Positions 10,590 through 37,700 of a stretch of 64,000 bases of DNA are shown one piece after another. Below the pieces are notes generated by a model. It did no database searches. It had not been told where the DNA came from and was given only the letters and a program-made list of their open reading frames with translations. Position 1 is the stretch's first letter; each line of letters opens with the position of its first letter. Location of the stretch: assembly GCA_000182565.2 (NCBI GenBank), contig KQ257476.1. The stretch is one strand, 5' to 3'. Made by a program: the position numbers and the translations under genes. Origin of the DNA: Spizellomyces punctatus DAOM BR117 (lineage: Eukaryota).

Positions 10590-10841
10590 AACCAGAGCAA
10601 TGAAATTGGTTCGACCGAAAGCGATGCGATGAGTATTTTTAAAGCCATGACCACAACTATGTAGAATCTCATCCGAGACTTGGACATCAGACAAGCGACA
10701 TCAAGCGGATAGTCAAGAGAGTAGCGACACCGTCGCATTGCACAATGCCGACTTCTCACCCTGAAACCAGAGCAATGAAATTGGTTCGACGGTAAGCGAT
10801 GCGATGAGTATCTGTAAAGCGAATGAGCGCAACTATGTAGA
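10590..10841. repeat. ~75-bp direct repeat, two copies (10590-10665, 10765-10841)
   Basis: aaccagagcaatgaaattggttcgac..aagcgatgcgatgagtat..taaagc..caactatgtaga occurs twice. Confidence 0.85.
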
Positions 10842-11269
10842 TAGGGTTAACAATGTTGTGCATCGGGCCAACATTCACCAACATGGCGTTCGAAACGAAG
10901 GGAGCTCATTCACCTCTTGCAAGCTGATAAACAGGAAGCAATTCGTAACCAACCCCTTCACCACCTTGTGTTGATCTTCGTTGCCACAATAAGAGAAGCT
11001 GCAACCCTTTGAAGTTGCAGTGCAGAAGATGGATCTTTCTTTGCCCAAGTGGCATCGATGAACACACTCTCGTCAACGGGCGGGGAGCATCTGGCGCCGA
11101 GCACTTGCATCAGGACTTGTCTTGCGACCAGATAACCGGCCTTGTTGCCGATAAGCTTCATGATGCTGAGAATCTGTCGTGGATCTATTCCGCCAGCAGG
11201 ATGAAAAGGTCAAACCGTGATGGTGAAGAGTCCAACGACGTGGGCAGCGGGTCCTCTGGGTCTTTTATT

Positions 11270-11480
11270 ACTAGGATTATCGCCAGCCCCACTGACGGGA
11301 CGCTGCACCACTTTGCCCGGAAGATTGGGGTGGTCCACCCCCGGCCCAACTGGGCTTGGGTCGCCAAGCCCGGTGACCTCACGGACATTTTACTCGATGA
11401 GGCGGATGGCCCAGGAGAGGGCTTTCGGGCCGGTACGATTCATGGCATGTCATGCACGTCTGTCATGCACGTCATCCTGC
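11270..11480 (+). pseudogene. Collapsed DEAD-box helicase remnant
   Basis: Reads IIASPT...VAKPGDLTDILLDEAD-GPGEGFRAGTIHG...MHVI: motif Ia/Ib/II and domain-2 pieces abutted together. It shares sequence with 13220-13385. Confidence 0.7.
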
Positions 11481-11609
11481 ACACCTGAACGATGAATGCA
11501 AACACCACCCGATCTGAGAATTGAGTTGTTCGAACATCAAAAAGGTAGGTATTGGCTAATTCACGACGACAATGACTTGTCTTCTGAACTGGCACGTTTC
11601 CATTGAAGG

Positions 11610-12070
11610 GATATCAGTCAACTCGTCGCCTCTCGGCGAGCATGGGTGATCAGTCCGGTCGTTTTCGTGGCATCTTTTCATCATTTGTGACGACAGTTTT
11701 CATGCTCACGATCACATCTTCTGGCTCTTCAAAGTTCATTATCTCTCTGGTCGTGCACATGGTTGCAGTCTGTCGTGCTGAAAGGCAACCCCGAATGGAA
11801 CAAAAACATGTCCTTGCAAGTGCTTGGCAAAGTAAAGGGTTGGAGTGATCATGGTGGAATTCAAAAATTTCATAATTCGGAATATGGGTTCTCGATGGCG
11901 AATGTTGCCCCAATGTATTAATCACAGGTCTCTTCAGAGTGGGCGGCATTCGCTAGTTTGGTCATATTCTGATAGTGCATCCATGGTACAGCCTGACGAC
12001 ACTATGAAGCCGTACTCAACCTTCCTCCACTTATACTCGTAAGAAAATACACAGCTCAACACTTATAATA
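11610..12070 (-). mobile_element. Repeat module C, internally deleted copy (inverted relative to 28660-29756)
   Basis: Reverse complement aligns with 29490-29756 and 28660-28820. Homology ends sharply at GATATC (11610 / 29756). Confidence 0.85.
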
Positions 12071-12074
12071 TCTC

Positions 12075-13080
12075 AATTATGCCTTGAGGGTCCAAGAGTG
12101 GCACCCAGAGGGGGGCGAGGGGATCCCGGTTCGTGATTCTCGTGGAGAACGACCACGGAAGAGGGTGCCACGTACAGCCGAGGAAGAAACAATAACAGGT
12201 GGTGGAGGGGAGTGAAGAAAACGAAAACAAGCCGCGGTTCTCGCAGAAAACGAACGTTGAGAAGAGTCGTGGAAACCGATGCGGTTAAGAGGGTAGCATG
12301 AACATACGAGAAAAGAAAGGAAAAGAAGGTGGTAAGTATACGTCCAAACGTATTGTTGATGTTGATGCACCCCATTTGACAAGTGGTTGCTGCCTTTTTT
12401 GAACGGCATAACACATGGAAGACTTGTCCATGACCGTGAAGAATCGTGAAGGGACGCGGCTGCCTACTCCTGCTTAGCGCCGACCGAAGTCAGAAACCGG
12501 ATCGGAACAGGGACTAGCGAATTTTGGAGATTGCACATAGGAGGGGCCGGTGCCAACATGTCACGGGTCGACTTTCCGGACGAGGCACTCGTAGCTCACA
12601 TAGGAGGGGCCGGTGCCAACATGTCACAGGTCGACTTTCCGGACGAGGCACTCGTAGCTTACGCAGCTCAGCAATCACCATCACGGGTCCGGTCCGACTG
12701 GGTGCAGAATACTCTCTTTCTACCAACCCATTTGGAATGGAAGAAAAAAAGCGGCTGGGTCCGGTGAGGGCGCGGGTCCGTAGACGCCCCCAGGCGATAA
12801 GCCTGGGTTGCCGCATCAGGGATTCCACCTCTCCCCACAGCAACGTCGCATGATTTGGGAACCGCGAAAACTCACCTTACTGTTTCCTTGGTTGAGGTGA
12901 CGGAGAGCGCGCGAGCCAGGTGTCGGGGTAGCAAGTGCCAAGTCAGGTCAAACAGCGGATGACGAAGGTTGTGCTGGAGACCGCGTTGCAACGTACTGTA
13001 GTAACAGCCAAGGTACGAACGGGAGGGTCCACCCGTCGGGAGTTTGATGATGAGGAAGAGAGGGAGGGACCACTAGTGAA
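12075..13080 (+). pseudogene. Repeat module B: decayed intron-containing gene with CxxC...EIAH...N-xLxL-PTH (HNH-like) signature
   Basis: Homologous to 27065-27880, 27880-28660 and 32430-33330 (reverse strand). Conserved GTAAGT donor at ~12332. Frames give LEIAHIGGAG...DWVQNTLFLPTHLEWKKKSGWVR. It contains a ~64-bp tandem duplication at 12534-12660. Confidence 0.65.
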
Positions 13081-13219
13081 TGACCACCACACTTTAAGCA
13101 CTTTTAATGCATTAATTCAATTAAATGCACTCTCAATGATTCACAGTCATTTGACGCACGTGGTTGCAATTTAGGTTGCAGTGTGCCAAAAAAGGGTGGT
13201 TGCTCACTTAAGCCCAGTG

Positions 13220-13563
13220 AGGGCGGACGGCTTAGGAGAGTGGCTTTCGGGCCGGTACAATTCATGGCGACTTAACTCAGTCACAGCGGGAGGAGGCTCT
13301 CGCTGCATTCAAAAGTGCAAGAAAGCCTATCCGTTGCCGCCCAGAGAGGACTGGACATTCCAAATGCCATGCACGTCATCCAGTATGATTTGCCAAACCA
13401 GATTGACGACTATGTTCACCGAATTGGCCGTCTGTCCCGTGGCAACTTGGGAAAAGCCACATCATTCTGGAATCCGGACAATTTCCCGATTACTTGCGAT
13501 TTGGTGAAGAAATTGCAAGAGAATAAGCAGCTAGTTCCTGAGTTTTTACGTGGTGGTGGTGGT
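13220..13563 (+). pseudogene. DED1/Vasa-type DEAD-box helicase C-terminal domain remnant
   Basis: ADGLGEWL / [26 protein letters not shown] / [46 protein letters not shown]...[12 protein letters not shown], with frameshifts and deletions. Confidence 0.88.
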
Positions 13564-17833: not shown

Positions 17834-18289
17834 ACCAGTCCAGGTGCATCTTCTGACTGCTTTTGGCTACATGCCATTAATACTTGGATTAGATCGGCCA
17901 TTAAAGACTGTCGCTCTACTGAGAGAACATCATAGATTAATCTGCTGGTTGAACGACGGAAGTCAGAGGTAGGGACATTAACAATGTCCAACTGTCCATG
18001 AAATTCGTGATTTAAACAAGCTTGATGGAAAGTTAGGCTTCTTTGTTGACGTCTTAACGTACTGTTACAGCGCAGACAATATTACACATGGCCAGCATCG
18101 TTGGATACGTTTTGTGGCAACGAATACTAAATATTTACTCTAACTCAATCTCTTCGAGAATGTGCGCTCTTTGTGACTTTGGATGCAAACAATCACGCTG
18201 CAGGCACAGCATGGCACAGCAATGGCACAGCACTTGATTCGAGAAGGAAGCGCCTAGGGCAAACGTTTGCCGTGATCGGCTTCCTTGTC

Positions 18290-21200
18290 ATGGGCGAATC
18301 AGTTCCCGCCTCGGACTCATGGCACCCTTTACCAAAGGGAATTCACGGCGTAGTTACCTCTGCATATGTCCCGGCACCCGCGTTGTCTCTCGGATTATCG
18401 ACTGAAGACTTGACAGCGGTCACCCTGGGAGGCTCCATCGCTACACAATCTGCGGTGGAGCCCCCGTTGACTGATTACCGAGTGCGCTTAGAACTGGGTG
18501 ATACGGTTCACCTGCTTGAGGAATGTGGTTCTTGGTATCGGGGATATGTATTCCCAACTTTATCGATGGAGTCTGGTTCCAAACTGGGCATATTCCCCGC
18601 TAGTCACATCTACTCTCGTTCCTTGCAGGACAGAGGATTGGCCAATAGCAACCGGGTTTCAGCATCTCTTCCTGAACCAGTCCCAGCTCCGCAACCGGAA
18701 ATTGAATTGGGAAAAGACAGTAGACCCCGACGGCCGTCCTTGTCTCGAACCCTGACGGCACCACTACCACTTTCAAGCGCTCTCCCGTCCATAGAACTTC
18801 TAATGCCAGAGTCTTCTCCTTCTCCTTCACCGAAACGACCTATTCAACCACAGAGACCGCTATCATATACCGCTGGTTATTCCACTAGTCCTCGAAGAGT
18901 TGCTCACCCGATCCCTGCTCCTGTACGGACGAATCATGAGACATTGACCGGTCTTAAAGAACCGCTTATTGATGAAATTGCCGCGGTTCTTCGAGACTGG
19001 GGCGGAAAACTGAAATCTTATTTGGAGCTGCAAGAATATGAGCGGTTTCAGCGCGTGCATGGAATGTTCAGCATTCTTTTTCAAGGGAGGAGGACGCTCC
19101 TGGCTCAAACTCTTGCGCAGGAGGAACTTGTTCGCCTGCGTAGAACATTAATTGCCACCATGGAAGAAGGGAACATGTATCAAAACATGGACTTGCTCGT
19201 TCGTCATAGCGAAAAGGGACATTTGCTCTCTGAGAGAAATACCACCATTATAAATGTATACCGTATGCACCTTCAGCTAGCGGAACGTCGTCGGCTAGGC
19301 AGAAGTGGATGGCGATCTAAGGATCCGACATCCCCCTCTTCTACATTAGGGAGCTACATTGAATCACCATTGACGAACACAGATCTTGACGTTCTAGCTA
19401 CCAAGTTTGCTCACTTACTTGTTGAAGTCCGGTCTTGTGACGCTTCAATATGTCTGCCAGGCGAATATGCGGAGCTTAGATTCTCTCTCTACAACTCCAG
19501 CGACTGCCGGATGGTGACTGAAGAGTTCATCATGAAAGTTGATAGTAGTGGCAAACCCGTGTCTGACGGTGGATGGGCTTCGAATAAAAGCCGTACATTA
19601 TTCGCAGAACTCGCCTTTAGGGATTTGACAGATAGTATGTACTTGGTTTGTCGACTCATCCGTGTCGGCAAAATGAACGTTAGCGAGAAAGAAAGCGAAA
19701 AGGCAGATAGAGCTGGATACGGTTCCGTCAGCTCGCTGCATACTTCTACTTCTTCTCTCGACATATCGAATGGCAACCCACAAAGCTCGTCCCATTACCG
19801 TCGTCCGTTTGGTTGGGCGGTCGCGCTAGTGGGTGACCTGCTGAAGCCTGCCGAAGCAGGCAACGCTGATATGGAAAAAACGAAGGAGATCAGGATGCGG
19901 ATTTACGTCCCATCCTCCGAATCTCAGTTCACCTCAATTTGTGAGAACATCATCAACCGGTCGGGTGGTTATGAAACGTCTTCACGGGCGGACTCATTGC
20001 AGGTGACCTTGAGAGTCTTTCGAGGCGATTTGAAGGCAGTGACCCGGACATATCCGGCCCTTCTTCCACAAGCGACTGTTACTCCACGTAATGGATTTTA
20101 TGATGTGATTCTTCCTGGCGTGGTGCGCAATTCAATGTATTTGACCCTTGTGTCTGGGGAGTTCATTCAGAGCCGAAAACCCTCTATCCGAAATATTCAA
20201 GTCACTGTCCAAGTTCGGCTGACAAATGGGAATCCCGTGGAAGATTGCATTTCATGCGGAGTGGGAGAAGGGAAGAGGACCTACTACGACTCGATTGTTT
20301 TCTACCACAATACGACACCGAAATGGACCGAGACAATCCGTATTGACCTACCAACCGAGCTGTTTGAAAAGGCGCATGTCTTTTTTACATTTCGCCATTG
20401 CTCTTCCTCCGACAAAGGCGACGGTAAAGATAGAGGAGAGCGCAACTTCGCATTTGCTTTCTTACCCCTCCTACGAGGAAACCACATGGTCATCTCCGAT
20501 TCAACTCACTCCTTGAATCTGTACAAGTATGACAAACGTGTCGCCGTCTCATCTGTCTACCTCACGTATCCAGCCGGGGCGAACCTTCTCGTGCCCGCCA
20601 AGCAGGCACCGTCGTCGTTCGACGCTTTGGCAACGGCTGCAGACGCAATGTCGAAGCTCCCGATGCTCAAAGATTCGGTTACAATCCGTACGCAGTTATG
20701 CTCCACCCAGCTAACCCAAAATGTGTCACTCCACAACTTCCTGCATTGGCGACAAGGCCACCAGCCAGTCGAGACCGTACTGCGGGAATTCATCTTGATT
20801 GGTGAACTGGAAATCATCATGTTTCTCCCTGCCATTCTGGATTCGTTGTTTTCCATACTCGATGCTGTGGCGGATGGTTCTCTCGGCGTATCCTCCCAGT
20901 CAGTAGATGATCTAGTGTTTTCCGCGCTAGTGTTCATTTTGGGAATTGTTGTAGATAAACGCTTCACTAATCATCGAGCCGCACTTGACACCTATATCAG
21001 TTCCACGTTCAGCAGTGAAGGAGCTTGGGAGATTTTGTTGAGAGGATTCGAGAGACTCATCAAACATCCCCAAGATAGCGGAAAAGGCAAAGAATTGAGA
21101 AGTGCGATCAAAGTTTGGAGCTATCTGTTGCGATTCGCAATCCGGAGCAATGTCATCAGCACCATCAAGGCGAGGAAATCTCACTCCCAAGGCTCGGGGG

Positions 21201-24200
21201 AAATAGCGAACAACCAAGGGGATTTGGTATCCGGTGGTAGAGTAGCTGCCCCTACGTCGGAATTCATCCAATCTATCACTTCGCTCTTCAACGCTATCAA
21301 CCAAATGATGACACTTTCTGCCCCTGAGCACATAATTGGATCACAAACTTTGACGCTCCAGCACTTTGCGAGTCTTTTACCTGACCTTGTTCAAGTCTTC
21401 CCGCCACCTCACCTAGTGAATATCGCTGCAACATTTGTCGACAGTGTGCGCAGCAATCGACCAAAGCTTAACGGATACAAATTACTGTTTGTGAAGGAGC
21501 TGGTAAAGGGATTTTTGTTTGCTGATGACAGAAGCCGAGGTGTGGTGGTAAATTGTGTATGCCGATGGGTAGGCGAGTGGATTAGAGAATGGTTGAGCTA
21601 TGCCCCGCGCACATTTGACGATATCCCCCCGACGCTGGACCTCGCAAAGGACTCCAAAATTAGTGGAGAGAGGGAAAATCTCAAATTCTGCTTAGATGTT
21701 GTCGCAGAGGTGGTCGATCGCTTACAACGATTGATGGAAAAAAGGGAGAGAGAAAAAGACAAAATGAAAGGGGCGCATCAACATGAGAAAGTCGCGGATG
21801 GTACCTCGACACAGAGCGAAGCTACATTGATGTGTGTCGCCGACCTTCTCCCTAAGCTTCTAGAGGTGCATTTGACTCTTGTGTCTGAATTGGGAGTCTC
21901 TACCGGCGGAGACGAACGTTATGAGCACAGAAGAAGAGCTGATACTGGCGTGAAGGACATTAATACCGAGAAACAAATCCTTCCGCAGTCATTAGAGTTG
22001 GCCCAGCTCGATGCTATTATTTTGGCCATCGTTCATCTGTTGCGGGAAGATCAGATGCAATCTTTCCTGGTAAAGCAAGCAGCGGGTAGTGGACCAAGAG
22101 GAACTGTACGAAGCCTGTATACACTCTGCGAAGTCTTTGGGCATATGATTGGGGAGCAGTCGTTCCCTGTTTCATGGGTCAGTATGAATATGATCGCACA
22201 TCGGGTCACCACGAAGGTACTTCGCCCCGTGAGTGAGCTCATGCGAGCGGAGTTTGTTGGCGGGAAGGATGAAGACGATGGGTCTACAGGCAAACGGGCA
22301 AGCGTTGCCTTCAGCATAAGCGGAAGTGAGCTGTCGAATGCAGAGATCCGCAGCGGAGCCCGAACGTTTTATACTGCTGCCACGGCTTACGGAACTGCGG
22401 TTAATGGCGAGCATAGCACGATTTTAGACGAATCAGGCACACAAGCCTGGCTTCACCGTATTTGGGACGGGTATTTCCGTGTGCTTCTTCAACTACTTAA
22501 TTCCCGCTGGCTGCAAATTGAGCGATTTGAACCGCAGCAAGCTCGAGCAGCACATAAACTTTCTGCGGATGTTCGGGGAGAAGGTGGGGAAGTGCTGCGG
22601 ACCATGTGGGAATATCTTGGCTCCACATCACGGGGAAAAACACTGCAAGCAGGTTTCATTCCCGCCCTGGTTGGACCATTCTTGCAGCTCACGGCGTCTC
22701 CACATCCAGTCCTTCGCAGTGCTGCAGTCGAGTTGCTCTTCAACACTATTGAACCCGAATTCGAACAAGTAGGGCATTTTGGAAGAGTTGAGGTGGAATG
22801 CATTGAGCGTCTTCATCGCCTCATTGCGCAGGAAAGGCTTGGTGATGACGCCTATCGATCATTCATAGTTGATGCTCTTGAACGACGATTTGCCACCAGG
22901 GCGCTGCTTACTGGAGATGAAGATGACCACCACAGCCGGGAGCTGACTACTCAGGGGCAAGCGTTCATCGGCAGCCTTGATAAATTTTTGGGGCTTTCTC
23001 TGCGCATTCGAGATCTACCATCGGGAGAACAGTCTCACGATGAGGCAGTTGAGACTGTCGTCAAAATGTTGAGGTTCTTGCGATCCATCGGTCGACGGAA
23101 TATCTATGTGGAATATGTTCATCGACTGTTCGACTTCCATATGGAAACCAATGATGTTGTAGAGGCAGCGTTGGCGCTGAAGCTTCATGGCGACCTCTTG
23201 GAATGGCGGAGTGACGCGCTTTTGGAACCTTTGCCTGCATACGGGTTCCCTGATTGGCAAACGGAATTCGAGAGGAAGGAGGCCATTTACTTGCGCTGTG
23301 TAGACCTTCTAGAAACTGGCCAAACTTGGGAGCGTGCTCTCGAGCTTTGCAGAGAATTAGCAGGAGAATACGAGCGAAAGGCATATTCATTCAGCAAGCT
23401 TGCAAACATCCTCCGTCGTCAGGCAGATCTATGTGCTGGTATAGCAGCTACATCTCGCTGCCAGCCTGAATACTATCGCGTAGGATTCTATGGTCGGGAT
23501 TGTCCGCCATTACTACGGAATAAGCAATTTATATACCGCGGAGGTGAATGGGAAAAACTCGGGTCTTTCTGCGAGCGCCTTTTGCGAAAGCATGTGGGTG
23601 GCAAACTAGCTAAAAGTAATGCATATCCGCCACCTCCTGAAGTCAAGGATGGAGATGGATTATGGTTGCAGGTCACAGGCGTGAAACCAATTATTGACTG
23701 GAGAGCATGGAGGACGGGGAAAGATAGTGGGGCGTTTGGCGCCATTCAATGGGAGAGGCCCTCTAGTACCCCAGATAATAGATACGGATTCGACGTGGAT
23801 GACGGGGACGATGCGGATTTGCTTCTTATCGAACCGGACCTGAGTCCATATTCAGCCACGCAACGCGGATCGGCGGTCGGAGGAAATATTTTAGGTGCCT
23901 TGGAGCGAGCTGATGAGCGCGTTAAATCATACTACGAGGCAAATGAGGTTAATGTATTTGCCTTCTCACGACCGGTACGGAAGTCTTTACCAGCAGAGTC
24001 CACTCTGCCGGCTAATGATGGCGCAAGAGAGTTCCTGGAGTTATGGACGGAGAAGACTGTATTCCTCACAGATGATCGATTCCCTGGCCTCAGCAGGCGA
24101 TGTGAAGTGGTGAGAGTTGAGAGCTATGAACTTTCGCCAGTGGAGAACGCCATTATCGCCGTGCGTGGGAAGAATAAGCAGCTTCAGGAACTGGAAAAGA

Positions 24201-25082
24201 AGTTTGCCCCATTTGCGCAACTGGGACTCCCTCGTCCAAGCTCAGATCTGGGCGCCAGGGGGTCGTATTTACCAGTCCAACGGCCGGATCGAGCATCAAG
24301 CTCGTCCGCAGCCGAGATCCCAAACGTAAATCCGTTCACAATGGCGCTCAATGGTGCTGTTGATGCTCCGGTCAATGGTGGAATTCCCATGTACAAACGA
24401 GCGTTTTTGAGCACGGAGTATCGAAGTGAAGCCGAGAAGAATGGGCGGGAGATGCTTGTCAATATGTTGGAGAGAGCAATTGAAGAACAAGTGCGTTGAA
24501 GCAGCTCTACCATCCCGGTGTAGGCAGATAACCCTAACCGTGTTTCGCTTTTGCTCTGCAGGTTGAAATCATCCATCGCTGCTTGATGGTCCACGACCAT
24601 ATCGTGCCGGAACAGATGAGACCATTACACGAGGAGCTCATCACCTGTAAGAAACTTGCTGTACCGATCTGCCATAGCCCTGCTTAACATATTATTTTGG
24701 GCTATAAACAGTCTTCCACAAGAACTTTGCAGATGACATTGCGAGACTCAACCTGCCCTCACTGCGACATGCTCGCCCGTCAGGGCAGGGTCTGCGCAGG
24801 AGTGAGAGTGTGTCGCCTACAGTCACGTCATCTGGATCATCCGCTTCAGGAGATGTGAGGACAAATGCAACTGCAAATCCTGCTCCAACAACGACTACGA
24901 CGTCACGAATGAGTTCCAGTCAGCGGTCTTCCGTTATACTTGGCTTGCGCCATTCCCTATCGACGGCTGATGGTAGTGGGTCAGTGAGCGCGGCAGTAGG
25001 CACAGGAGATGGGGAGTCTGTCACCGCAGACAGCCGTGGCAGAAAGGATCGGTTTGGGACAATCTTAAATAGGTTCTTATAG
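18290..25082 (+). CDS. DOCK-family (DOCK1-5 type) Rac GEF: SH3-like, DHR1/C2 and DHR2 domains
   Basis: 2108-aa ORF with LELGDTVHLLEECGSWYRG (SH3), YRRPFG, SIVFYHNTTPKWTETI..HVFFTFRHCSS (DHR1), PEYYRVGFYG..LRNKQFIYRG, LSPVENAI and LNGAVDAPVNGGIPMY (DHR2). Two small introns at ~24491-24561 and ~24647-24711. Confidence 0.95.
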
Positions 25083-25189
25083 TATAGATAGTAGTCGTAA
25101 GGGTTTTTTTGTAAATTTTTCTAATATATTAGTCAAGTTATATATAATTATACTTATTATATAATTACATATATTAAACTAACTTAATG

Positions 25190-26900
25190 TTTTAGAAAAA
25201 GAAAGCAAACACCGCTGAGGTGACGACGGCCGTGGCAGCACTGGCAGCTGCTGCAACATGGAAGGAAGACTTGGGAGCTTTCGTGCCGCGGTTGCGGCGT
25301 TTACGACGGCGGGTGGCCGGGGTCACAGTGGGACGGCCTGGACAGGTGGAAAGAACGCAAATTATGCTGATGCGGCGACCGCACCCACAGCACTAGCCAG
25401 TGCTAGATGGACAGAGGCGGGGCTATGGGCGTTGAGGGCGGGGGCGCCGGTTCAGGCATAACAGGCGCCGGGGTGTCATGAACTGTTTCATCGATGCGAC
25501 ATCGATACCACATCTCTCTGAATTCCTTTAACTGCTATTATTCTCACCGGGCTTGATTCAACATTCTATGGATTGGAATTGACCTCGGCATTTATAGATC
25601 TGATCGACCTGGTAAATCGAGTGGTGGAGCTGGGTCAGCGAAAGGAGGTGGTGCCCCGAGTGCATCGTGCAGCGAGTCCAGCGGGTGCATCGACTGGTGC
25701 ATCGGCTCTTTCTACGGCGGGTGGCCGGGGTCACAGTGACACGGCCTGGATAGGGGGAAAGAACGAAAATAGCGCAGATGCGGCGACCGCATCGACAGCA
25801 CTAGCAAGTGCAACTGTCGTGAGAGGGACCGCGGTGACGGGGTGGCGCAGCTGGTGCGTCGGCAGCCAGGGCGATGGGCGGAGGGACCGCTGCAACGAGA
25901 GCAAGTGCGGTTTCAGGGATGTATAGCTCGGCCGAGGGAGCGACGTCAGGATTAGAGGTTTCAGCGATATAAGGCTCGGTTGAGGTAGCGCCGGTTTCAG
26001 AGATCTGAGCGTCGGGCGGCGGCGGTTTCGACGTTTTCTTAGAGTGGTGGGAGTGACGGCAGGGTCCCTCATCCTGGCCGACCCCGCCTTCCTCACGGAT
26101 CCAGAGCCAGCGAGAAGAGGAAGAGGTGCACGGGCGCAGGCGCAGATGTTGCTTGGTTCACAACAGAAGCCTTCTCCATGTTGTGTGCCTCGATGCCCTA
26201 CCTTCAACGCTTCCAATATATCGTCTTTACAGTGTCTGAGCCCATCTCCAACTGTCTATAAAAGCAACGTGCCTGGCCAGAATCCCCCCCTCCAAACAGC
26301 TCCAGATATGCCTGATTACATACAATAAAAACATACACTAACTTATTATAGGAGGAAAGCAAATACTGCAGAAGCGGCGGCAGCACCGACAGCACTAGCA
26401 AAAGGCAACTGTCGCAAGAGGGACCGCGGCGACGGGTGGCGGTGTGGGCGTTGGGGGAGCGGCCGCGGTTTCACGGCTCGCCGGCGCCGGAGGAGCGGCG
26501 CCAGGTTGAGAGGTTTCAAGGATGGGCAGCTCGACCGGCGGAGCGGCGCCAGGTTGAGGTATATTAGGCCCGGCCGAGGGACCGGCGCCGGTTTCAGGGA
26601 TCTGACAGTCGGGCGGCGGCGGTTTCGACGTTTACTTGGAGTGGTGGGAGTGACGGCAGGGTCCCCATCCTGACCGACCCCGCCTTCCTCACGGATCCAG
26701 AGTCAGCGTCCGAATTGGATTGGTTCACAACAGAAGCCTTCTCCATGTTGTGTGACTCGATGCCCTACGTTCAACGCTTCCAACCAAAGCCTGTTCGACC
26801 AGACGGTGCCCTAGCCGACTTCATTGCGCAAACTGCTTCAGAGTCGAATACTGGGGAGGGTGTGCAGAGAGAAGAGCTGGCGTTTCTTCTGCTCCTTAGG
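25190..26900 (-). pseudogene. Tandem array of ~3 decayed module-A copies (Pro/Ala-rich, hydrophobic tail)
   Basis: Tails SAVFAFFF* (~25193) and SAVFAFLL* (~26348) match 31406. 26010-26210 is duplicated at 26600-26780, and 25300-25425 at 25710-25810. The N-terminal remnant NEVG*GTVWSNRLWLEAL matches TDVGKEYPQPNRAWMGAL. Confidence 0.75.
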
Positions 26901-27064
26901 CAGAAGCAGATTGTGTGTGTGTGGGAAAGTTGGGTGAGAGGGAAACCACCTCCTTCGTTCCTTTTATACCAATTTCTTACGTGATATTTAATTAAATACT
27001 TGATATAACTTAATTTAGATAAATAAAAATGGCACGTGACGACCTTACAAGTATTCCCACCAGT

Positions 27065-28660
27065 CATGGATGGACCATCCCGTTCCTTACTTGTCTGTTA
27101 CACCTTGTAACTCCGGTCTCCAGCACGACCTCCGTCATCCGCTGTTTGACCTGAGAAAGTGCCCCGACACCTGGCTCGCGCAGCCGCTCTCCATCTCGTC
27201 AGAGAAACACGAAGGTACGTTTTTGTGGTTCCCAAATCGTACACGATATTGCTGTGGGGAGAGGTGGGTTCCCTCAGGCCGCGCGATACTCGTGATTGCG
27301 GGTTGGTCTGCCTTTCGGTATACCCAGGGCGTGCTTCACCGGACCCAGCCGCTCTTTTTCCATTCCACATGGATTGGTGGATTGGTGGAAACAGAGTTTC
27401 TGCGCCCAACCGGTGTGCAGGACTTGCAGCGGTCATTGCTGAGCTGTGGGAGCTTTGAGTGCCTCGTACATGCGGTCTGCGACCCGTGACAGGTTGGCAT
27501 CAGCCCTTCCTATGCGCAATTTCCACCTTCGCTAGTCCCTACGCCGGCGGTTTTCTGACTTCGGTCGGCGCTAAGCAGAGCAGGCAGCCTTGTCCCTTTA
27601 CGATTCTAGCATCCGTGGACGGAAGGTCCATGTGTATATTCGTGTAGAAGAGGCAGCAGCTTACATCAGTCGTCAAATAGGGTGCATCAACACAACTTTC
27701 GAATGTATACTTACCACCCTTTCTCCCTTTCTCTTTCTCGTTTGTGCTTCTACCCGCCTACGTCATCGTCTTTAACGATGTTACCCGACATTCGCTTTCT
27801 GCGAGACCCACGCGCGCTTTCCGTCCCCTCGCGTTTCCCCCAATCTCGTCACCATTACCGTTCGCCAAAATGACCCTTCGTCTGGTGTTTAAACTGGCTC
27901 GCGCGTCCTGCCCCGACATCTGGCTCGCGCATTTGCTCTCCGTCGCGTCAGGCAACAAAACAGTAAGGTGCGTTTCGTGGTTCCCAATCATACACGACGT
28001 TGCTGTGGGGAGAGGTGGTTCCCTTGGGCTCGCGCGATACCCCGGGTTTAGGGGTTGAATTTATGGTCTACCTGTCGGTGGACCCTGTGCGTTCGTTACT
28101 GGACCAGCCGCTCTTTTTCTTCCATGGATTGGTAGAAAGAGAGTTTCTGCGACTCGTCGGTTACTGGACCTGCGATGGTGATTGCTGAGTTGCGCGAACT
28201 TGAGTGCCTCGTCAGCGTGGTCTTTGACCCGTGACAAGTTGGCACCAGTTCCTTCTAGAGTGCTTCGTACGCGTCAACCCGTACCAAGCTACTCCAACTC
28301 CTCTGTGCGGTCTCCCAATTTCGTTAGTCCCTGGCCGGTGGGGGATCTGACTTTGGTCGGCGCTAGGAAGAGCAGGCAGCCTTGTCCCTTTACGATTCTA
28401 CCGTGTCCCTGGACGAATTGTTCAGCGGGTCATTTATTTGACATTCTCCGCATCGAAGAGGCAGCAACTAGTCGTCGAATGGGGTGCATCAACATCAATA
28501 TTATTTTCGGATGTATACTTACCACTTTTTTTCTTTTCTTCCTCGTATGTTCATCCTCCACCCTCTTCCGTCACCGTCTTCAACGACTTTTTTTCGGCGT
28601 TCGTTCTCTGCGAGATCCGCAAACCGCGAACAACCCCCTGCGACACTCTTGTACCCTCAA
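27065..28660 (-). pseudogene. Two tandem copies of module B (HNH-like)
   Basis: Units ~27065-27880 and ~27880-28660 share ttgctgtggggagagg, ccagccgctctttttc, tctgactt(c/t)ggtcggcgcta and gtatacttaccac. Translation RIVKGQGCLLCLAPTEVR..GLAKVEIAHRKG. Confidence 0.7.
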
Positions 28661-29756
28661 GGCTTAATTTAGATATTATAACATAATGTTAAGCTGTTGT
28701 ATTTTCTTACGAATATAAGGGGATGAAGGTGGAATACGGCTTCTTAGTGTCGTCAAGCTGTACCCAGGGATGCATTATCAGAATATGACCAAGCTGCCCA
28801 CTCTGAAGAGACCTGTGATTGCTTGACTGACAGATTGATTTCCGTAATCAAACTGCCCCAGATTGCAAGGCTAGTGTTAGCCATTGGAATGATGCAGGCG
28901 TTGGCAAATAATTTCATTGATAACGATCACAATATCAGCCAGAATAGGAAGCACTCTCCTCCCTTCGTATGCCAGTCCTAACCCCAACCCACCACCTTGC
29001 CCTACTAGCTTTCTCAAGGAATCCGACTTTCAGGCTATTCAAAGACATGATTGGATCACAGCCGATCTTGTAGACACTACTAGAAAATATCAAGAGTTCA
29101 CATCTGTCGGGCGTGCAAAGAACACAAAAGCGTCGGTGATACAAGTGTTCAGATCTCCATGAAGAACTGAACACGAGACGGGGAAATTGCTACATGGGCA
29201 GCGCACCAGACGATGTAGCCGGGATTATCCTAAAGGTGGTCATTAAAATTCAAAGATCAGTAATTTTGTACATTACTTGATAATACCTCCGAGAGAGCAT
29301 CTCGCATCCCAAAAGAGCACATATTGCCCTTGCTGATATCATATTCCAAGTCATCTTAAATCCGTTAGAGTGTAGCAAAATGCTGAAAGACCAAGTCACG
29401 AGGGAGCAGATCATTGCGCAGATCGGGGGAATCGGTGCAACATTCGCAATCGAACACCCATATTCCACAAAGAATGTTCTGTCCCGCGAATTATGGAATT
29501 TTTTGAATTCCACCATGATCACTGCAACCGTTTACTCTGCCAAGAACTTGCCAACGACATGTTTTTATTCCGTTCGGGGTTGCCTTCAGCACGAGAGACT
29601 GTAACCATGTGCAAGATCAGAGAGATAATGAATTTGAAGAGCCAGAAGATGTGATCGTGGGCATGAAATCTGTCGTCACAAATGATGAAAAAATGCCTCG
29701 AAAACGACCGGACTGATCACCCATGCTCGCCGAGAGGTGACGAGTTGACTGATATC
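28660..29756 (+). pseudogene. Module C, longest copy; decayed gene of unknown family
   Basis: Matches the reverse complement of 11610-12070 and also 33425-33985. Broken frames FLKESDFQAIQRHDWITADL, IIAQIGGIGATFAIEHP and FEFHHDHCNRLLCQELANDMFLF...KMPRKRPD*. Confidence 0.65.
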
Positions 29757-29880
29757 GGCGCTAACTGAGATGGCTAATTGTTGAGGATAAAAAGGGCGTT
29801 GGAGTTCTCCTCCCTCCTCTCTATTCAGCGTCCGGTCTCCCTTACTCACGAAGCACCTCATCAAATTTATCCCAGCAACT

Positions 29881-31222
29881 ATGAAGATCACCCTTCTCTC
29901 TTTGGCTTTTGCGGCCTCGGCCATAGCAGTGCCAGTCCAACCTAGCTCTAGCGCTAGCATGGCCCCGGAGGCGGTCTCCAGCATTCCTATATTCCGTCAT
30001 CCCAAGAATGCTACAAAGCTCGAGAGGATTGTCGCCAACAAGGACTTTAGCATTCAGAAATATTCTGCGCTCACCTCTGGTTTGCATGCACGCGGTCCGA
30101 TTTTGACAAACGACGCAAACGAGTTGTACTATGGGCCTGTAACCATCGGATCCCAAACGTTCCAGGTTGATTTGGACACAGGCTCCTCCGATTGTATGTG
30201 GACCATCGGGATTTCAAAAGGCTCTTTAGCTGATCAGAATGAGTTCTTCTAGTTTGGCTTCGCGGAGCAAACTGCCAGTCAAGTGATGGCTCCTGCGGCA
30301 ATGGCCAGCCCGCGGTTAGCACGCGCGAGTTCAAAGATACAGGTTCCCAGTTCCAAGACTCTTGTAGGTTCAATTGAAAACAAAGCTAGAATTGCTGGGG
30401 CGGATCATTCTAACTATTTTACATCAAGACGGCTCTGGCTCTGCAGACGGCGAAATCTACCAAGGCACTTACACACTCGGTGGCGTGACCGCCAAGAATG
30501 CGTATTTTGGTGTATCGACGAACGAGCAAGGATTTACCGATCCCGCAGACGGTCTTCTTGGATTAGGATTTGCGGCCATCAGCAACATTGCTTCCGCCAC
30601 CAACGGTCGGGCCCCGATTGATGAACTGGGATTGAAGTCGTTCGGCTTTTACCTCAGCAACGCCAATGACGGAGACCAGGGACTTGTTACTCTGCAGGGA
30701 GCTGACAGTTCAAAGTACACGGGAGGATTCAACTATGGTGAGACTATACACATAACGGCATTCGCCCTCTGCGTGTGAAATCTCATCCATCTTGCAGTAC
30801 CCTTGAACTCTCGTACCTACTGGCAGTATTCTCTCAGTGGTGGCTCTGTCCAAGTCGGCAACACCAAAACTGCGTTCTCAATCCGAAACGCCATCGCCGA
30901 CACTGGTACAACCCTCATTATCATCGGTGACAAGGAAGCAAGTGCAATCGCCAGAGCTGTCGGCGCCGACTCTAACGGAAATATTTCGTGTTCCGTCGCC
31001 AGAACCGGTCCTAAAGTGGTCTTTAACATCAACGGCGTGGCTTACGCTATCCCACCTAGCGTCTATGTGTTTGAGGACCAGGGACAGTGCATCCTGGGCA
31101 TCCAGGGCGGTGCAGCTCAAGCTGGCGTCGCAATCTTTGGAGACGTTTTCATTAGACAGTATTACACCTTATTTGATGTTGCTAACAGCCGTGTTGGATT
31201 TGCTCTAGCTAATCACAACTAG
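29881..31222 (+). CDS. Secreted pepsin-like aspartic protease (A1 family), 4 exons
   Basis: Signal peptide MKITLLSLAFAASAIA, YYGPVTIGSQTFQVDLDTGSSD, DGLLGLGF, AIADTGTTLI and IFGDVFIRQYYTLFDVANSRVGFA. Three short GT-AG introns. Confidence 0.96.
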
Positions 31223-31405
31223 ACTCTAGATACACCATAGAATGACATGCTACCGTCGCTGGGCGACGAAAAGATGTAGTTAGAGTAGGTAGACTAGTTC
31301 AATTCAATATACAATTCTTGGATAGCTGATATATTCGACAAGTCCTTTATACATAATCATACTATTCCAATATAATTACATATAATAAAAACAAACACTA
31401 ACTTC

Positions 31406-32032
31406 TCAAAGGAAGAAAGCAAATACCGCAGAAGCGGCGGCAGCACCGACAGCGCTAGCAACAGCACTAGCAAAGGCAACTGTTGTAACAGGGACCGCGG
31501 CGACGGGTGGCGCAGCTGGTGCGTCGGGAGCCGGGGCGATGGGCGGAGGTGCAGGGAATTCAACCTCCGCCGCGCCAGCGGCATCAGGGTCAACGGTTTC
31601 AGGGATCGCCGCGATGAGAGCTGGCGCGGTTTCAGGTATCGGAGAGTTGGGCGGCGGCGTGTGGCGCTCCTGCGCCACGTTCGTTGTGGCTTGGCTGATA
31701 GCCGTGTCGCCCGAGTTGTTAAATCTGTTTCCGTTGATAACGTTTCGATTTTGGATATTCACGGGAGTCTGCCGTGACCGGCGGCAGAGCGTAATTAGCA
31801 ATTCTTTCTGAATTGCATCGTGCCGTTCTAAAAGTGTTGACGCGCGGGCGCGCTCGGCGTCCTTGCGGGAGTCGTCTCCCAAAATTTTTGTCAATGCACC
31901 CATCCACGCCCGATTGGGCTGAGGGTATTCCTTGCCCACGTCAGTGGCAAAGGAGGAGACCGTCCATCTTTGCGGTCTTCGTCTAAAGAACCGGTCTACG
32001 CGGCGTTGCTTCTGGGCTTTCGTCAAAGTCAT
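31406..32032 (-). CDS. Module A intact ORF: orphan helical N-domain + Pro/Ala-rich linker + hydrophobic C-terminal tail
   Basis: MTLTKAQKQRRVDRFFRRRPQRWTVSSFATDVGKEYPQPNRAWMGALTKIL...SAVGAAAASAVFAFFL*. Homologs at 25190-26900 and 34150-34400. Confidence 0.7.
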   Translation of the reverse strand: MTLTKAQKQRRVDRFFRRRPQRWTVSSFATDVGKEYPQPNRAWMGALTKILGDDSRKDAERARASTLLERHDAIQKELLITLCRRSRQTPVNIQNRNVINGNRFNNSGDTAISQATTNVAQERHTPPPNSPIPETAPALIAAIPETVDPDAAGAAEVEFPAPPPIAPAPDAPAAPPVAAVPVTTVAFASAVASAVGAAAASAVFAFFL

Positions 32033-32152
32033 TGTATGTTGGATATTTGGTAACAAATCAAATAGCTGGACAATAAGCGGCGGACATCGCGAGACCTCCT
32101 CTATTTAAAGTCCTTAAAAGTCCTGTATAAAATTAATTATTCCATATTTGTC

Positions 32153-32321
32153 TATATTACACATCACGTGAGCAATTACTCTCTCCATGGCTGTGCTGGG
32201 TGATTTTTGGCACAGCAGGCAATTAATTAAATTATTATTAATTGCTATTAATTGCCTGCTGTGCCATAAATCACCCAGCACAGCCATGGAGAGAGTAATT
32301 GCTCACGTGATATGTAATATA
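32153..32321. repeat. Long fold-back palindrome (~75-bp arms, AT-rich centre)
   Basis: tatattacacatcacgtgagcaattactctctccatggctgtgctgggtgatttttggcacagcaggcaattaat and its near-exact reverse complement ending ...gctcacgtgatatgtaatata. Confidence 0.95.
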
Positions 32322-32429
32322 ACTTAATTGGGATAAATTGTATATTATTGGCACAGTCATAGAGAGCATTGTTAGTAATATTGGGACACTAAATTTTCTT
32401 CCGGCTATTTAAGGACGCCTTCAACGCGC

Positions 32430-33330
32430 GTTCCCTTTCCTCCCATTCACACCAATGTGGTGCCATCACCACATTCGCAACACCGTTCTCCACCACAACC
32501 TTCGTCTGCGGGTTGACCTGACTTGGCACTTGCTGCCGGCCCCGACTCGTGGGTTGCGCGCTCTTCTTCGCGTCAAGGAGACAGTAAGGTGAGTTTTCAT
32601 GGTTTCGAAAGTATACGACGTTGCTGTGGGGAGAGGAGGGATCCCTCAAGCGCCACGATAACCGTGCAATGGGTTCAACTTTAGGTCTACCTTTCGGTAG
32701 ACCCTGTGCGCGCTTGACCGCGACCCAGCCGCTCTTTTTCTTCCATTCCAAATGGGTTGGTTGGAAAAAGAGTATTCTGCACCAGTTCGGAGGCTGGACT
32801 GGCGGTGATTGCAAATCTTCGCTGGTCCCTACACCGATCCGGTTTCTGACTTTGGTCGGCGCTAAGCAGGAGCAGGCACCCTTATTCCCTTCACGATTCT
32901 CACGCGCCGTGGACGAACAGTCCATGTGAATACGTACAAAAGAGGCAGCAACTTCTATAGTAGTGTCAAATGGGTGCATCAACATACTTTTCGGATGCAT
33001 GCTGACCATCTTTTTTCCTTCCTTTTTTCGTATGTTCATGCTCTACCCTCTTACGGCATCGGCTTCAATGATTTTCGGCCTTCGTTGTCACGAGAAACGC
33101 GGCTTGTTTTCTTCACCTTTGACCTTGATTTATCTTCTCCCACCTTTTATCGCTTCTTCCTCGGCTGTTCATGGCGCCCTCTTCCATCACCTTCAACGAT
33201 TTTTCTCGGCGGTCGTTTCCTTTGAGACCCTCGCGCGTTTTCCTTTTCCTCGGGTTCCGCCAACCTCCTCATCACCGTCAACAAAACAACCTCCAACATC
33301 CGCTGTTTGAGTTAATACTGGCCCTTCGTC
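32430..33330 (-). pseudogene. Module B copy (HNH-like), plus the junction to a deleted second unit
   Basis: ORF 32389..33039 includes ACSCLAPTKVRNRIG...QPTHLEWKKKSGWV...RDPSSPHSNVVYF. 33225-33310 matches the B/B junction at 27805-27890. Confidence 0.65.
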
Positions 33331-33424
33331 GCCGGGCGCGACAGAATTAATTGAATATCCGAAACCGGCAAGTGATTAACGGATACCGAAATCACTCAAG
33401 AATAGTGGCGAAGCGACAATTTCC

Positions 33425-33985
33425 TATCCTTAATTTAGATATTGTAACCAAGTGTCAACCTGTGTACTGTCTTACGAATATAAATGCATAAGATAGGACT
33501 TTTTCGTGAATGCTGGACACTCTGAAGGACCTGTGTTTGATTGGTACATTGATTTCCCTGCTTGAGATACCCAGTTTTTTAAGACTGCGACACATACAGA
33601 CAGTTTCCGTTTCCGGTCATGTTAGCCATCGAAATGATCGTGGCATTGATACCTTCATCAATCGGCGTCGTATGGGCTAGACTAGTAAGTGCTCCCCGAA
33701 ACTTCCCAACCTACCTACCAACTTTCTCAAGCAATCCGACCTCCAGCTTGGCAAATTTGTTCAACGGCATGATTGGATCACAGCCGATCTTAAGAAACTC
33801 CTAGGAAGCATGCGCAAAGTGGAAGAGATCGTAATTACACACGAAAGCGTCAATGATACTTGTGTTCAGATCTCCATGAAAAAACAAGGCTCTGCTGAAC
33901 ACGAGACGGGTAAATGCTGCATGGGGAGCGAGTGTGCGCGGGCGATGTATGGATCTAGCCGGTATTATTCCACAGGGTGGTTAAT
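33425..33985 (+). pseudogene. Module C, partial copy
   Basis: cttaatttagatattgtaac, tcttacgaatataa, cactctgaag, catgattggatcacagccgatctt and gtgttcagatctccatgaa..ctgaacacgagacggg are shared with 28660-29240. Confidence 0.75.
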
Positions 33986-33990
33986 TGTTC

Positions 33991-34398
33991 GCTGTGCCAA
34001 AAATAACCGGCACAGCCATAAAGAGAGTAATCACTCACGCGATACTAATTCACTACTCGTATCGAAGTGTCCATCTGACAAATGTTTCTGCTGTAATCCC
34101 GTTATCTGTAAGATCAAATATTCAATACCAGTTTTAGTTAACGACAGACGACATCTTGCTGGTGGAACCGCGCAACGCGGTTTTTTGAACAACTGGCTCA
34201 AGTGGCTCCAACATTTCCTTTGCCACTAAAGTTCCAGCGGAAAATACTCTACCAACCAGGGTTTGGACAGAACTCTTGACCAAAATTCTGAGTGAACCAC
34301 ACCGCACAAACGCCGAAAAAAACCGTGCCCTGCGACTTTCGAAAGTGCACGACGTCATGCAGAAAGACATTATTTTCAGCCTCTGCCGAACAGTCTAG
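33991..34398 (+). pseudogene. Third palindrome-arm copy followed by a module-A N-terminal remnant (opposite strand to 31406-32032)
   Basis: 33991-34045 resembles the palindrome arm. 34214-34398 reads SFATKVPAENTLPTRVWTELLTKILSEPHRTNAEKNRALRLSKVHDVMQKDIIFSLCR vs SFATDVGKEYPQPNRAWMGALTKILGDDSRKDAERARASTLLERHDAIQKELLITLCR. Confidence 0.8.
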
Positions 34399-34464
34399 TG
34401 CAACTCCGAGCAGACTATACTGTCAGCGGAGAAATCTATTATAATAGGGGCGACGCGTCTCTTG

Positions 34465-34668
34465 CCAAGCCACACGCTAAACAAGCCACACATTTTCCCT
34501 GAACTAAACCACACACTTGCCTGGACAAGCCACACACTTTCCCTGAACTAAACCACACTCTTCCCCTGGACTGAGTCCCTGACGCAAGCCACACGCTTAC
34601 CCTGAACTAAACCACATTCTATCCCTTGGACTAAACCACACTCTTTCCTTGGGCTAAACCACACGCCT
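34465..34668. repeat. Minisatellite of ~21-22-bp units
   Basis: About nine units of (a/g)ccacac.....ccctg(a/g)actaa. Confidence 0.85.
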
Positions 34669-34784
34669 AATCAGCTCGTAGGCCATAACCCCCAAGGACC
34701 ACGCTCACAATGACATGGTCTTTTTTAAAATCATTGGACATTGGTGGATTAAGTACAATAAAAAACAACACGATGCACTACTCT

Positions 34785-37700
34785 TCAGTCATCAAGTTGA
34801 AGCCTGCCAAAGCATTGATCGGATTAGTCGAGATTCAGGTAAACCACAACTTCGCTCAGTTGACATGATACTCACAGTGCGGCTACGCCGCGCATGATCC
34901 AGTGCTTTTCTGGTTTATCAGTGGGCAATCTGATTCCAATAACAAAATTTGTGGAATGCCCAGTAGTGGATAGAACTCCTCGTCTGGCGCTCGTCTTGTA
35001 TACCGGACAATCGTAGGTTGCTTTTACCTGTCTGTCGGACACTCTGCATGGCTTGAACCATATTACGGGGAGCGGATCGTAAAGCACCTTGGGGAAAGAT
35101 TCTGCGATGAATCCCTTCTCTCGGTTCCATCTTGCACCCTCCAGGAATAATCCGCTAACATAAACTCCGTTGTCAGCGGCCGCAGTGATATCGGACGGGT
35201 TGGATGGTAATACGTCAAAATCCAAGCCCAGCTCATCGATAGGTATTGTATACTTTCGTGCATAATTTTGGAGCGTTGCTATGTAGAAGAGGGGACAAGT
35301 ACATTAGTGTGTGAAGGCGTGAAAATGATTCGCTACTAGTATCATCTTACCTGTAATAAAGGACTGGGTAAAGAAGAACCCAGACATCCAAAAGACTTTT
35401 GGACTCCCATGCTCAAACCAATCTCGAAAGAACTTTATTCTCGCCACGAGGTCGTTGATGTACGCTCCAAGTGGTTTCAAACTTGGATAACTTTTCGCCG
35501 CCCACATTGCGGGTATTCTGCCGACCAGAATACTCTTACAGACTTCCTCAAGTTCCGCACTCATCACTACCAAGCCGCGAATCGCTTTCTGAACGTTCAC
35601 CAAGCTGACCAGTACAACTTGGATGAGCCGATTGAACCGTATCATTTCCTGTATCAGGACGGTGTTCATGCTTTCATTGTAAGTGACAGGATATTTCTTT
35701 ACGGCCTCATCGATATTGAAGACGGACGGTATTCGTGACAAGATATCGGTTGCAACTTCTATGAGCACCTCGTCACTGGTTTTCTGTCCACCACCTCCAG
35801 CCACGCTGCGCTCCTGGGTAGCGACAACACTCTCAAATAAACTTCTTGTTTCCGCAAGCTGGCGGGCAATATCACCATTGTCGTGTATGCCAAAAATCTC
35901 GGGGCTCTGGTTAAGCGGCAATGACCGAATATACTCCAGGTAATTTTCGTATGTGCCCTTGACAGGCGCATAGTAGGTTCCAGACGGAGAAAACCGGTAA
36001 TTGTTATCCTCCACTATAGCTGGACAATAAAAGGTCGTCAATATGTTCATCAATGTCCGCCGATCCCAGTCGTCCGTTACACGTCCACCGTAATTGCATT
36101 CCCCGGTAAGGTAGATTAAAGCTTTGAAGGGTATTTCAGAGTATTCGTTCAAGAACATTTGGAGCTGACGCATGCTGATGCCTATAAACCGAACATTCAA
36201 GAGTTAGCGACATAGCAAATCGGGCCTTGATACAACACGATACATACGGAGATCCGAGTCATTAAACTCGTATGGAATGTTCCAACCCAACGGGCCAAAG
36301 TTCCTTCTCTCTTGAACCACACCATGGAATGTGCACAATCCGAAGAGCAGCTTTTCCCACTCATTTGATTTTACGGACCCAGCGAAAAACTTTTCATCAC
36401 TGATGGGGTCGCTCAAGTAACTTTTAAGGAGGTTGGCTTTTAGCCCCTTTGGAGGTTCATTCGTCATTTTTACGCCTCTATAGTGCATGGATTAATGTCC
36501 GATATCGTAGCATGTCGGTTTAGTGGTGCTTACCCTTGCAGAATGCTAGCCGGAAACTTTGGGCTCGGGTAAGAAGTCAACCAAAGTCGGAAATCTTTGT
36601 GAACGGAGACAGCCTCGGTGCTAATATCATCCACAATTTTTTCAAGGGTGGGAAGCCAGCTGACAGCCAGATGGCAGTTCTGGAGAACAACCCAGGTTCC
36701 ACCTCTTTGAGCTTCTTTCACCATTGCTGCGGCGATTGGACCCTGACCTTGACCTAAGGAGATTGATTGACATTTGGTGCCCGCAAAGCCTTTATCTTCT
36801 GCAAACTTCAGAAGCCTGCACCAATATTATCAATGCCTGTTTGTGTCCAAGTACAGTTAAGTAGACAGTTTACTTACTGAGACATTGGATCTACCCCCGG
36901 GGATAGTATAAAAATGAGCGCTGATCGGTGGTTCGAGTCTTCGAAACTTGCTGCCAGATCGAAAGTTGGAGGCTCGATGAACTTGTGGCCAAGTTTGACT
37001 CGAACAAATTCTTGTATGGCTGGTATGATCCTCTCAGGTCTGAGAGCTCTCACAACCAACATCTTCTGGAATTCATTCAAGCTAGCCCATTTGCCTGGCA
37101 ATGCTGCCTCATGCGGCTCGCCATGTTCAATCCATCCTTTCCATTCCTGTGGATCAAACTCTTCTCTGAGTCCGGAGAATGCAGGAAGGTCCGACATACG
37201 ATATATCTCCGCCCACGCCTTCTCTGAGATTAGAGTTGGATCCGGATTCGGAATTGTCGGCGCTCCCACACTAATGCCACCCGTAGTAAGATGTTGAAAT
37301 TCGGGTTCATTCAGCTCCTGTCGGTTTTTCAGAATACTGGTGCATAGAAGAAACGAGAAGAGGAGTTTGTCTTTTTCAAACAGTGAACGGCACACGTTGA
37401 GGTAAAGTGAGTATGTGAAATATGACTCGAGGTTCTTCAGTCGCCGCTTAAGTACACTGGATTTGTTGGATAGTGCAATGCCGTTGATGAACAGATCAAT
37501 GAACCAGGTCAGAGAGTACTGGTACATTGGATCTATGTTTGCCAGATCCGCAATGCAGAAGTAGAGCGTAGATGAGTGATTGGCAATGGGCCGGTATGAG
37601 TTACGTGTTTCATCGATTTTGCGTTCCGTTTCCTCTGCAATCTTTTGCTTTTCGAAGAGTTCCGTGGATATCTCCTTGGACGAGGATAATACCTCAATTG

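Follow-up and report, generated by a model that had tools for sequence, protein, structure and literature searches.

Host-gene fragments taken up at the DNA level are a mark of Pack-MULE and Pack-TIR elements, which carry promoter-bearing inverted arms, paired terminal inverted repeats (TIRs) and target-site duplications (TSDs) of 8–11 bp. Dispersed segmental duplications and unprocessed chimeric pseudogenes are DNA copies of variable length with introns, arbitrary ends, patchy identity and local clustering. Here we describe a low-copy repeat, B, and the modules A and C that adjoin it, in a 64,000-nucleotide stretch of the chytrid Spizellomyces punctatus DAOM BR117 (GCA_000182565.2). This stretch, the window, comprises bases 1–64000 of the 69,368-bp contig KQ257476.1 (C27), one of 38 contigs in a genome of 24.1 Mb. 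Passages of PMC4289320 describe non-autonomous Helitrons with captured gene fragments and state that fungal Helitrons rarely carry host fragments. According to the survey in PMC5751038, chytrids have very few DNA transposons, and Spizellomyces a single Kolobok.

Our analysis shows that the repeat is real, undescribed and low in copy number, and that its transcript is non-coding and polyadenylated; it is not a cargo cassette that moves as a unit. No description of the B repeat was found in the literature; supplements and Repbase lay outside this search, so a catalogued consensus may exist. All the traits of segmental duplicates and chimeric pseudogenes named above are present, together with some that recall Helitrons. 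Unlike such duplicates, however, the core of the repeat is non-coding, still polyadenylated and unevenly conserved, and no intact parent gene occurs in the assembly. The likeness to Starship cargo elements, as excerpts of PMC11162782 present them, lies only in an idea put forward in a preliminary description of the window, that of a block of genes that moves among host genes. Unlike Starships, the blocks described here measure 2–5 kb, contain no DUF3435 captain in their frames and no direct repeat above 7 bp at their ends, and have a non-coding cargo that is not co-inherited. A genome-wide DUF3435 search was blank as well, albeit without a valid control.

The preliminary description had proposed a cassette of an orphan gene A, an HNH-like gene B and a gene C, present three times. 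Self-BLASTN and sensitive pairwise alignments bear out the order A-like, CACGTG spacer, B, CTTAATTTAGATA spacer, C at 25121–29756 (block 1) and again at 31326–33930 (block 2), as well as B and C in inverted orientation at 11610–13034 (block 3). Blocks 1 and 2 lie 6 kb apart and align in BLASTN pieces of 61–85% identity (E down to 1e-47). The whole A-B-C series occurs only twice, however, as block 3 has no A; it also has no equivalent of 28821–29430. B is doubled in tandem in block 1 (27068–27812 and 27859–28620, both +). Block 2 holds one copy and a partial copy (32440–33310, +), namely 32440–33105 followed by a B tail and start at 33138–33310, with TATTTAAGG near 32407. The B copy of block 3 (12157–13034, −) contains a 63-bp internal tandem duplication. 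The reported match between B/B junctions is real, with 67% identity over 179 columns between 27714–27890 and 33140–33308. The B/C spacer of block 1 (28644–28725, +) holds CTTAATTTAGATA and TTACGAATATAA and is the homologue of the block-2 poly(A) region. C copy 1 (28726–29756) ends in GATATC, 125 bp before the start of a protease gene. C copy 2 with its B/C spacer (33429–33930, +) is truncated and spans only the equivalent of 28663–29203, and the internally deleted C copy 3, again with its spacer, occupies 11610–12160 (−). As had been noted, homology stops sharply at GATATC (11610/29756), and an unrelated fragment of a SNF2 gene abuts this end, stopping precisely at 11609. Missed in the preliminary description were a 205-bp palindrome, a third copy of its arm, an 86-bp insert resembling a miniature inverted-repeat transposable element (MITE) and a fourth piece of A on the + strand.

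Five DNA queries and a motif search returned the same closed set each time: nine long B copies and one partial copy, at seven places on four contigs. Genome-wide copy counts of A, B and C are lower bounds, and very distant B copies may escape detection. The seven places are the three blocks in the window, a tandem pair at 66.2–67.3 kb on C27, and sites on contigs C1, C4 and C9. The copies outside the window therefore imply more than one local duplication, and the proposed dispersal holds for B, sometimes accompanied by the start of C. It does not hold for A-B-C as a spreading unit. A adjoins B at two of the seven places, and its DNA gave no match outside blocks 1 and 2 in a genome-wide search; B stands without A at the other five and without any C at three. 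Some C follows B at four places, at C9 for only ~170 bp, and a 69–95 bp piece of C occurs alone on C2. Copy ends differ as well: the distal ends vary, and the promoter-side ends share motifs and no common terminus. A-B-C is found only locally and its modules occur independently of one another, largely the outcome that the preliminary description itself had named as speaking against its proposal. Short A-like peptides are encoded at 1353, at 11300 and on C20. Alone among the copies, that on C9 is flanked by a 59-bp direct repeat (83%; 4633–4691 and 5928–5986 in locus L024), upstream of a NEDD4/Bsd2-family gene; these repeats may have arisen through a long duplication during insertion. The C2 site with the C piece (4149–4220 and 5243–5450 in locus L025) also has pieces matching the rDNA-bearing contig C32 (97% and 82%), another patchwork.

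B is not a protein gene. Its copies are pairwise 63–90% identical over ungapped columns, triplet indels make up 182 of 949 in pairwise comparisons, and the mismatch autocorrelation has no peak at lag 3. The longest frame, at 32392–33042 (−), is that of a called 178-aa gene and is common to no other copy. Of the 14 indels that separate it from the closest copy (87% identical), 13 shift the frame, and mismatches number 19, 23 and 14 at the first, second and third codon positions; a homologue search returned only the frame itself. None of 126 stop-free frames in the blocks and their flanks reached the Pfam cut-off, and no HNH domain was found among them. The called gene is probably spurious. Nor does C hold up as a gene, for which no reading frame common to the copies exists. 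Its indels are mostly non-triplet (16 of 19 and 4 of 5), it has no Pfam domain, and its frame found no match in the Atlas. The frame at the C2 match has no longer relative, which is weak evidence, and none of the 12 frames at the C2 locus has a Pfam domain.

RNA evidence comes from one sample, run X7, which is stranded and 3′-biased; about 6% of it was read and mapped on 24400–35000, where the DOCK, protease and dynein genes calibrate the strand. Runs X1, X2 and X4 behave as low-depth DNA, with introns covered. In block 2, polyadenylated RNA on the + strand ends at 33498, marked by 17 reads with non-templated A, ~15 bases past a AATATAAA word in the B/C spacer. Depth is 99 at 33250–33603, the end of the B transcript, compared with 105 at the protease 3′ end, and a second + strand read pile lies at 32188–32541 (depth 11.8). 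Since − strand reads over block-2 B stay under depth 1, B is read on +, opposite to the orientation first assigned. This run contains a polyadenylated transcript at B without a conserved open reading frame, and no splice joint was seen in these short reads. Some reads count against so simple a picture: weak + signal at the 3′ end of B copy 2 in block 1 (depth 6.3), weak − signal over C in the same block (depth 5.7–7.3), and eight reads over the block-3 copy at 12.9 kb that are antisense to the block-2 transcript. A joint 32534–27162, considered as circular RNA, was rejected, as its reads derive from the 12.9 kb copy.

The AT-rich spacer at 26950–27060, between A (−) and B (+) of block 1, has CTTAATTTAGATA at 27009 and CACGTG at 27033 and may act as a divergent promoter. 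The palindrome lies at 32135–32339 and consists of 93-nt arms that match at 83 of 93 positions (z = −18); a third arm at 33981–34043 (+), 83% identical to these, faces the fourth A piece. Genome-wide, GGCACAGYCA occurs 411 times versus 69 for the reversed control, a six-fold excess; within the window it is found at 32350 and 34009. As a pair with CACGYG within 10–24 bases, it counts 11 sites versus 0. Three of these belong to the B family, and seven of the other eight lie within ~300 bp of a long open reading frame, judged by eye. GGCACAGYCA, frequently found with CACGTG upstream of host genes, may be a core promoter element of this chytrid and is a testable lead in itself. Because the spacer motif occurs genome-wide at host genes, the palindrome is best read as an inverted duplication of a promoter, back to back, with one arm directed to A and one to B. 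The promoter of the fission-yeast long non-coding RNA (lncRNA) nc-tgp1 consists, in the portion of PMC5769750 that treats it, of a HomolD box, CAGTCACA, and a TATA box. Here too a CAGTCAC-like core and a TATA box precede a polyadenylated non-coding RNA; unlike the HomolD promoter, the motif is GGCACAGYCA paired with CACGTG, and the likeness is only a lead. Sub-threshold Rfam matches on the palindrome were dismissed, since the miRNA models concerned respond to any long hairpin.

Block 3 is embedded in fragments of host genes. Its left flank (10590–11609, +) consists of DEAD-box pieces from C3 (10603–11003), SNF2-type pieces from C1 (11088–11284 and 11484–11609) and an A-like/DEAD chimera common to C20. 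The right flank (13068–13563, +) begins with short pieces matching C4 and C1, followed by a DEAD-box C-terminal fragment from C3 (PF00271, Helicase_C). The fragments bear introns and retain 80–88% (DEAD-box) and 78–87% (SNF2-type) identity; the names DEAD-box and SNF2 were given by eye from translations, Helicase_C by Pfam. Such an intron-bearing patchwork indicates copying at the DNA level, piecemeal. Identity between blocks 1 and 3 rises from 77–88% in B to 93–95% in distal C, in a gap-permissive alignment whose middle windows spanning the deletion are ignored, and this gradient likewise points to piecemeal copying. Six boundary comparisons revealed no direct repeats above 7 bp at the block ends, and no TIR or TSD bounds the blocks; nor was a mobility enzyme found. 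The earlier view of relics without a transposase is supported. The chimeric DEAD-box/SNF2 pseudogene patchwork extends over 10590–13563 and recurs at 20–149 and at 75219–75497 on C20; the same internally deleted DEAD junction is seen at 11401, at 13222 and on C20.

The explanation that we rank first, and that could as easily be wrong as right, is that these are repair-driven duplicates of a promoter-bearing non-coding unit, which A joined at one locally duplicated locus. B would be a unit of ~0.75–0.85 kb with a host-type promoter (GGCACAGYCA, CACGTG and a TATA-like box), a donor-like splice site and a poly(A) site, and C would be mere DNA downstream of it. Ectopic repair or recombination may have carried DNA copies of B-C pieces, varying in length, to a few places, after which the copies would have been tandemly duplicated and have swapped patches with each other, becoming partly homogenised while decaying. 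Shared indels among the B copies are incompatible with one tree. A would be an orphan protein gene in its own right, arranged head-to-head with B at a single locus, and a single local duplication of that A-B-C locus would have produced blocks 1 and 2, which flank the protease gene.

Several observations weigh against repair-driven duplication. For a product of chance repair, ten related pieces is a high number. Substitution rates vary among the sites of B (gamma alpha 1.4), with a likelihood gain of 19.8 versus at most 4.7 in all 25 neutral simulations with indels. Removing CpG columns does not abolish the unevenness, and it clusters along the sequence (p = 0.002); such a pattern would not be expected from decay alone. 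Nor is B depleted in CpG: observed/expected ratios are 1.01–1.07, versus 0.69 in a high-copy element of the same window (6521–7239). The donor-like site, AG/GTACGT in B copy 1, AG/GTGCGT in copy 2 and AG/GTGAGT near 32589 in copy 3, keeps its GT..GT in seven of nine copies, and its variants are donor-compatible only. Finally, 4 bp in from the GATATC end, at 11617, lies a strict Helitron-type 3′ pattern (six pairs, a 4-nt loop, a 5-nt gap, then CTGA and T). Fourteen such matches occur in 139 kb, both strands of the contig together, or 0.1 per kb per strand.

This last point bears on the possibility, unlikely but second in rank, that the B-C pieces are what remains of a non-autonomous rolling-circle element of Helitron type with its 3′ end at GATATC, where read-through and capture would account for the variable ends, the B-B tandems and the patchwork. 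The absence of TIRs and TSDs and the intron-bearing fragments from several contigs would fit, as would the hairpin and CTRR-like motif near one shared end, judged by HelSearch-like criteria taken from PMC4289320, and promoter-side ends survive in more copies than distal ones. However, homology runs 4 bases past CTGA, and thus beyond where a Helitron ends, in both blocks 1 and 3; the flanking SNF2 fragment is not the source of these bases, and the shared end is followed by G or C. The block-1 copy (29.75 kb) fails the strict pattern by one G-T pair, the GATATC end is reached at only two of seven places, and the hairpin had been noticed before the criteria were applied. No 5′ TC terminus is shared among the copies, and no insertion between A and T was seen. 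As for a Rep/Hel partner, PIF1 has one strong and two marginal matches in the assembly, and Helitron Rep (PF14214) has no match genome-wide, though no control matched either. Further Helitron-type 3′ patterns near the family lie at 25132 (−), in AT-rich DNA near the left end of block-1 homology, at 28871 (+) and at 67571 (+) on C27. In a broader and rather speculative form, which we think improbable, B would be the conserved and still transcribed non-coding core of an undescribed non-autonomous fragment-capturing chytrid element, rolling-circle-like with a hairpin-CTGATATC end, a host-type promoter and tandem dimers, and a builder of the chimeric gene patchworks of this contig. The uneven conservation could instead reflect selection, with B a family of spliced, polyadenylated lncRNA genes, possibly exon plus long intron units doubled in tandem, and A and C bystanders. 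Block-wise conservation, the retained donor and the abundant poly(A) RNA speak for such a family, as does the CpG content, given that 5-methylcytosine is said in PMC12695648 to be confined to transposons in this genus. We nevertheless regard it as a doubtful reading: any two-sided change affects only 3 of 31, 5 of 46 and 5 of 44 predicted pairs, so covariation is scant, folding z-scores run from −2.4 to +0.6 over 16 strands, and at least three of nine copies are truncated. Rfam holds no family above threshold in B, the 3′-biased reads contain no splice joint to support splicing, and recombination among copies can mimic rate variation.

An arrangement of promoter arms as the TIRs of a MULE-like or Pack-TIR element is very unlikely. 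Here the arms would hold inward promoters, and the palindrome would be the tail-to-head junction of two ends, with A at one and B-C at the other. The arms are indeed 83–89% alike, compared with 59% (103 of 174 bases) for the coding DNA of the two A paralogues beside them; every arm faces A or B, and arm-like sequence precedes B at C9 and at 67.4 kb on C27 too. Yet the arm core is a genome-wide promoter motif, and unlike Pack-MULE and Pack-TIR elements the blocks have neither paired terminal arms nor an 8–11 bp TSD. The arms have no common outer terminus and no partner at C9 or C4. The MULE transposase domain (PF10551) found no match in the draft assembly, in a search whose control matched in 3 of 14 genomes. 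Least credible, and largely refuted, is the protein-coding cargo cassette of A, an HNH-like B and C moving as a unit. The module order and the B/B and B/C junctions common to the blocks, together with the 178-aa call on B (−), had spoken for it; the broken frame, the near-absence of − strand reads and the linkage of A at only two places contradict it. Taken as it stands, B is an undescribed but ordinary low-copy repeat in a chytrid that serves as a laboratory model. Were B instead Helitron-like or an lncRNA family, it would be a case of fragment capture from genes or of constraint on a family of lncRNAs, in a lineage to which PMC5751038 ascribes very few DNA transposons. For annotation, the 178-aa B (−) call and the unannotated poly(A) RNA running against it are of direct use.

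Other origins of B were considered and set aside. For a snoRNA (small nucleolar RNA) host gene there is no Rfam match, and matches of at least 10 nt to ribosomal RNA number 26 versus 29 in shuffles, with no guide beside a D box, with the small subunit and ~2 kb of the large subunit as targets. A Retrozyme or Penelope-like retroelement was rejected, as no ribozyme was found and the copies extend past the poly(A) site, leaving no fixed 3′ end. Rfam contains no ribozyme match, and a rough motif scan of eight strands gave no fold like that of hepatitis delta virus and one lone hammerhead-like word. A viral origin was likewise rejected: no relative of A occurs in viral contigs, and the B-motif matches (four viral, five metagenomic) are due to chance, as none of the nine scores with the B model.

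The A sequences form a genuine family of orphan proteins, of which one copy is intact. That copy, A2 (31409–32032, −), encodes 208 aa with a basic N-terminal domain, a Pro-rich linker and a hydrophobic tail, and is expressed at a low level. A1 (25121–26870, −) consists of three partial, frameshifted tandem copies (~26315–26870, 25703–26255 and 25153–25471), the first of which differs from the A2 frame by 11 indels, all non-triplet. The fourth piece, A′ (34189–34395, +), is a truncated paralogue of the N-terminal domain with 47% amino-acid identity to A2; over 58 codons their mismatches fall 21/19/31 by codon position. Reads at 3′ ends on the − strand reach depth 24 over A1 (25108–25461) and 9.5 and 2.9 over A2. 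Homologue searches found only A itself, and a profile search of 1.84 billion proteins added only an SFI1 repeat artefact. The Atlas gave leads under 0.9 only, and Pfam no domain.

The host genes around the blocks are those for a DOCK protein (18131–24499, +), the aspartyl protease (29881–31222, +; PF00026; poly(A) at 31329) between blocks 1 and 2, and a dynein heavy chain from ~34.9 kb on (−). A second copy of the protease gene was not found in the DNA examined. A tRNA gene (10312–10383, −), with identical copies on C9, sits directly beside the start of the patchwork. The MITE-like insert (34052–34136), a decayed and unrelated 86-bp element with TA-flanked inverted repeats, lies between the third arm and A′. 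Its family, with ~15-bp inverted ends flanked by TA, is present on C2, C5, C7, C8 (twice) and C16, with further weak matches on C12, C13 and C14. The CpG-depleted 720-bp element with inverted ends at 6521–7239 is a high-copy one, with 241 candidates, of which 39 were scored at 81–99% identity. A 22–23 bp minisatellite occupies 34481–34664, between A′ and the dynein 3′ end. Short inverted or direct duplications occur around a ycf45-like ATPase gene and elsewhere on the contig (49502–53107; 50123–50244 versus 57744–57865; 2575–2671 versus 54845–54943).

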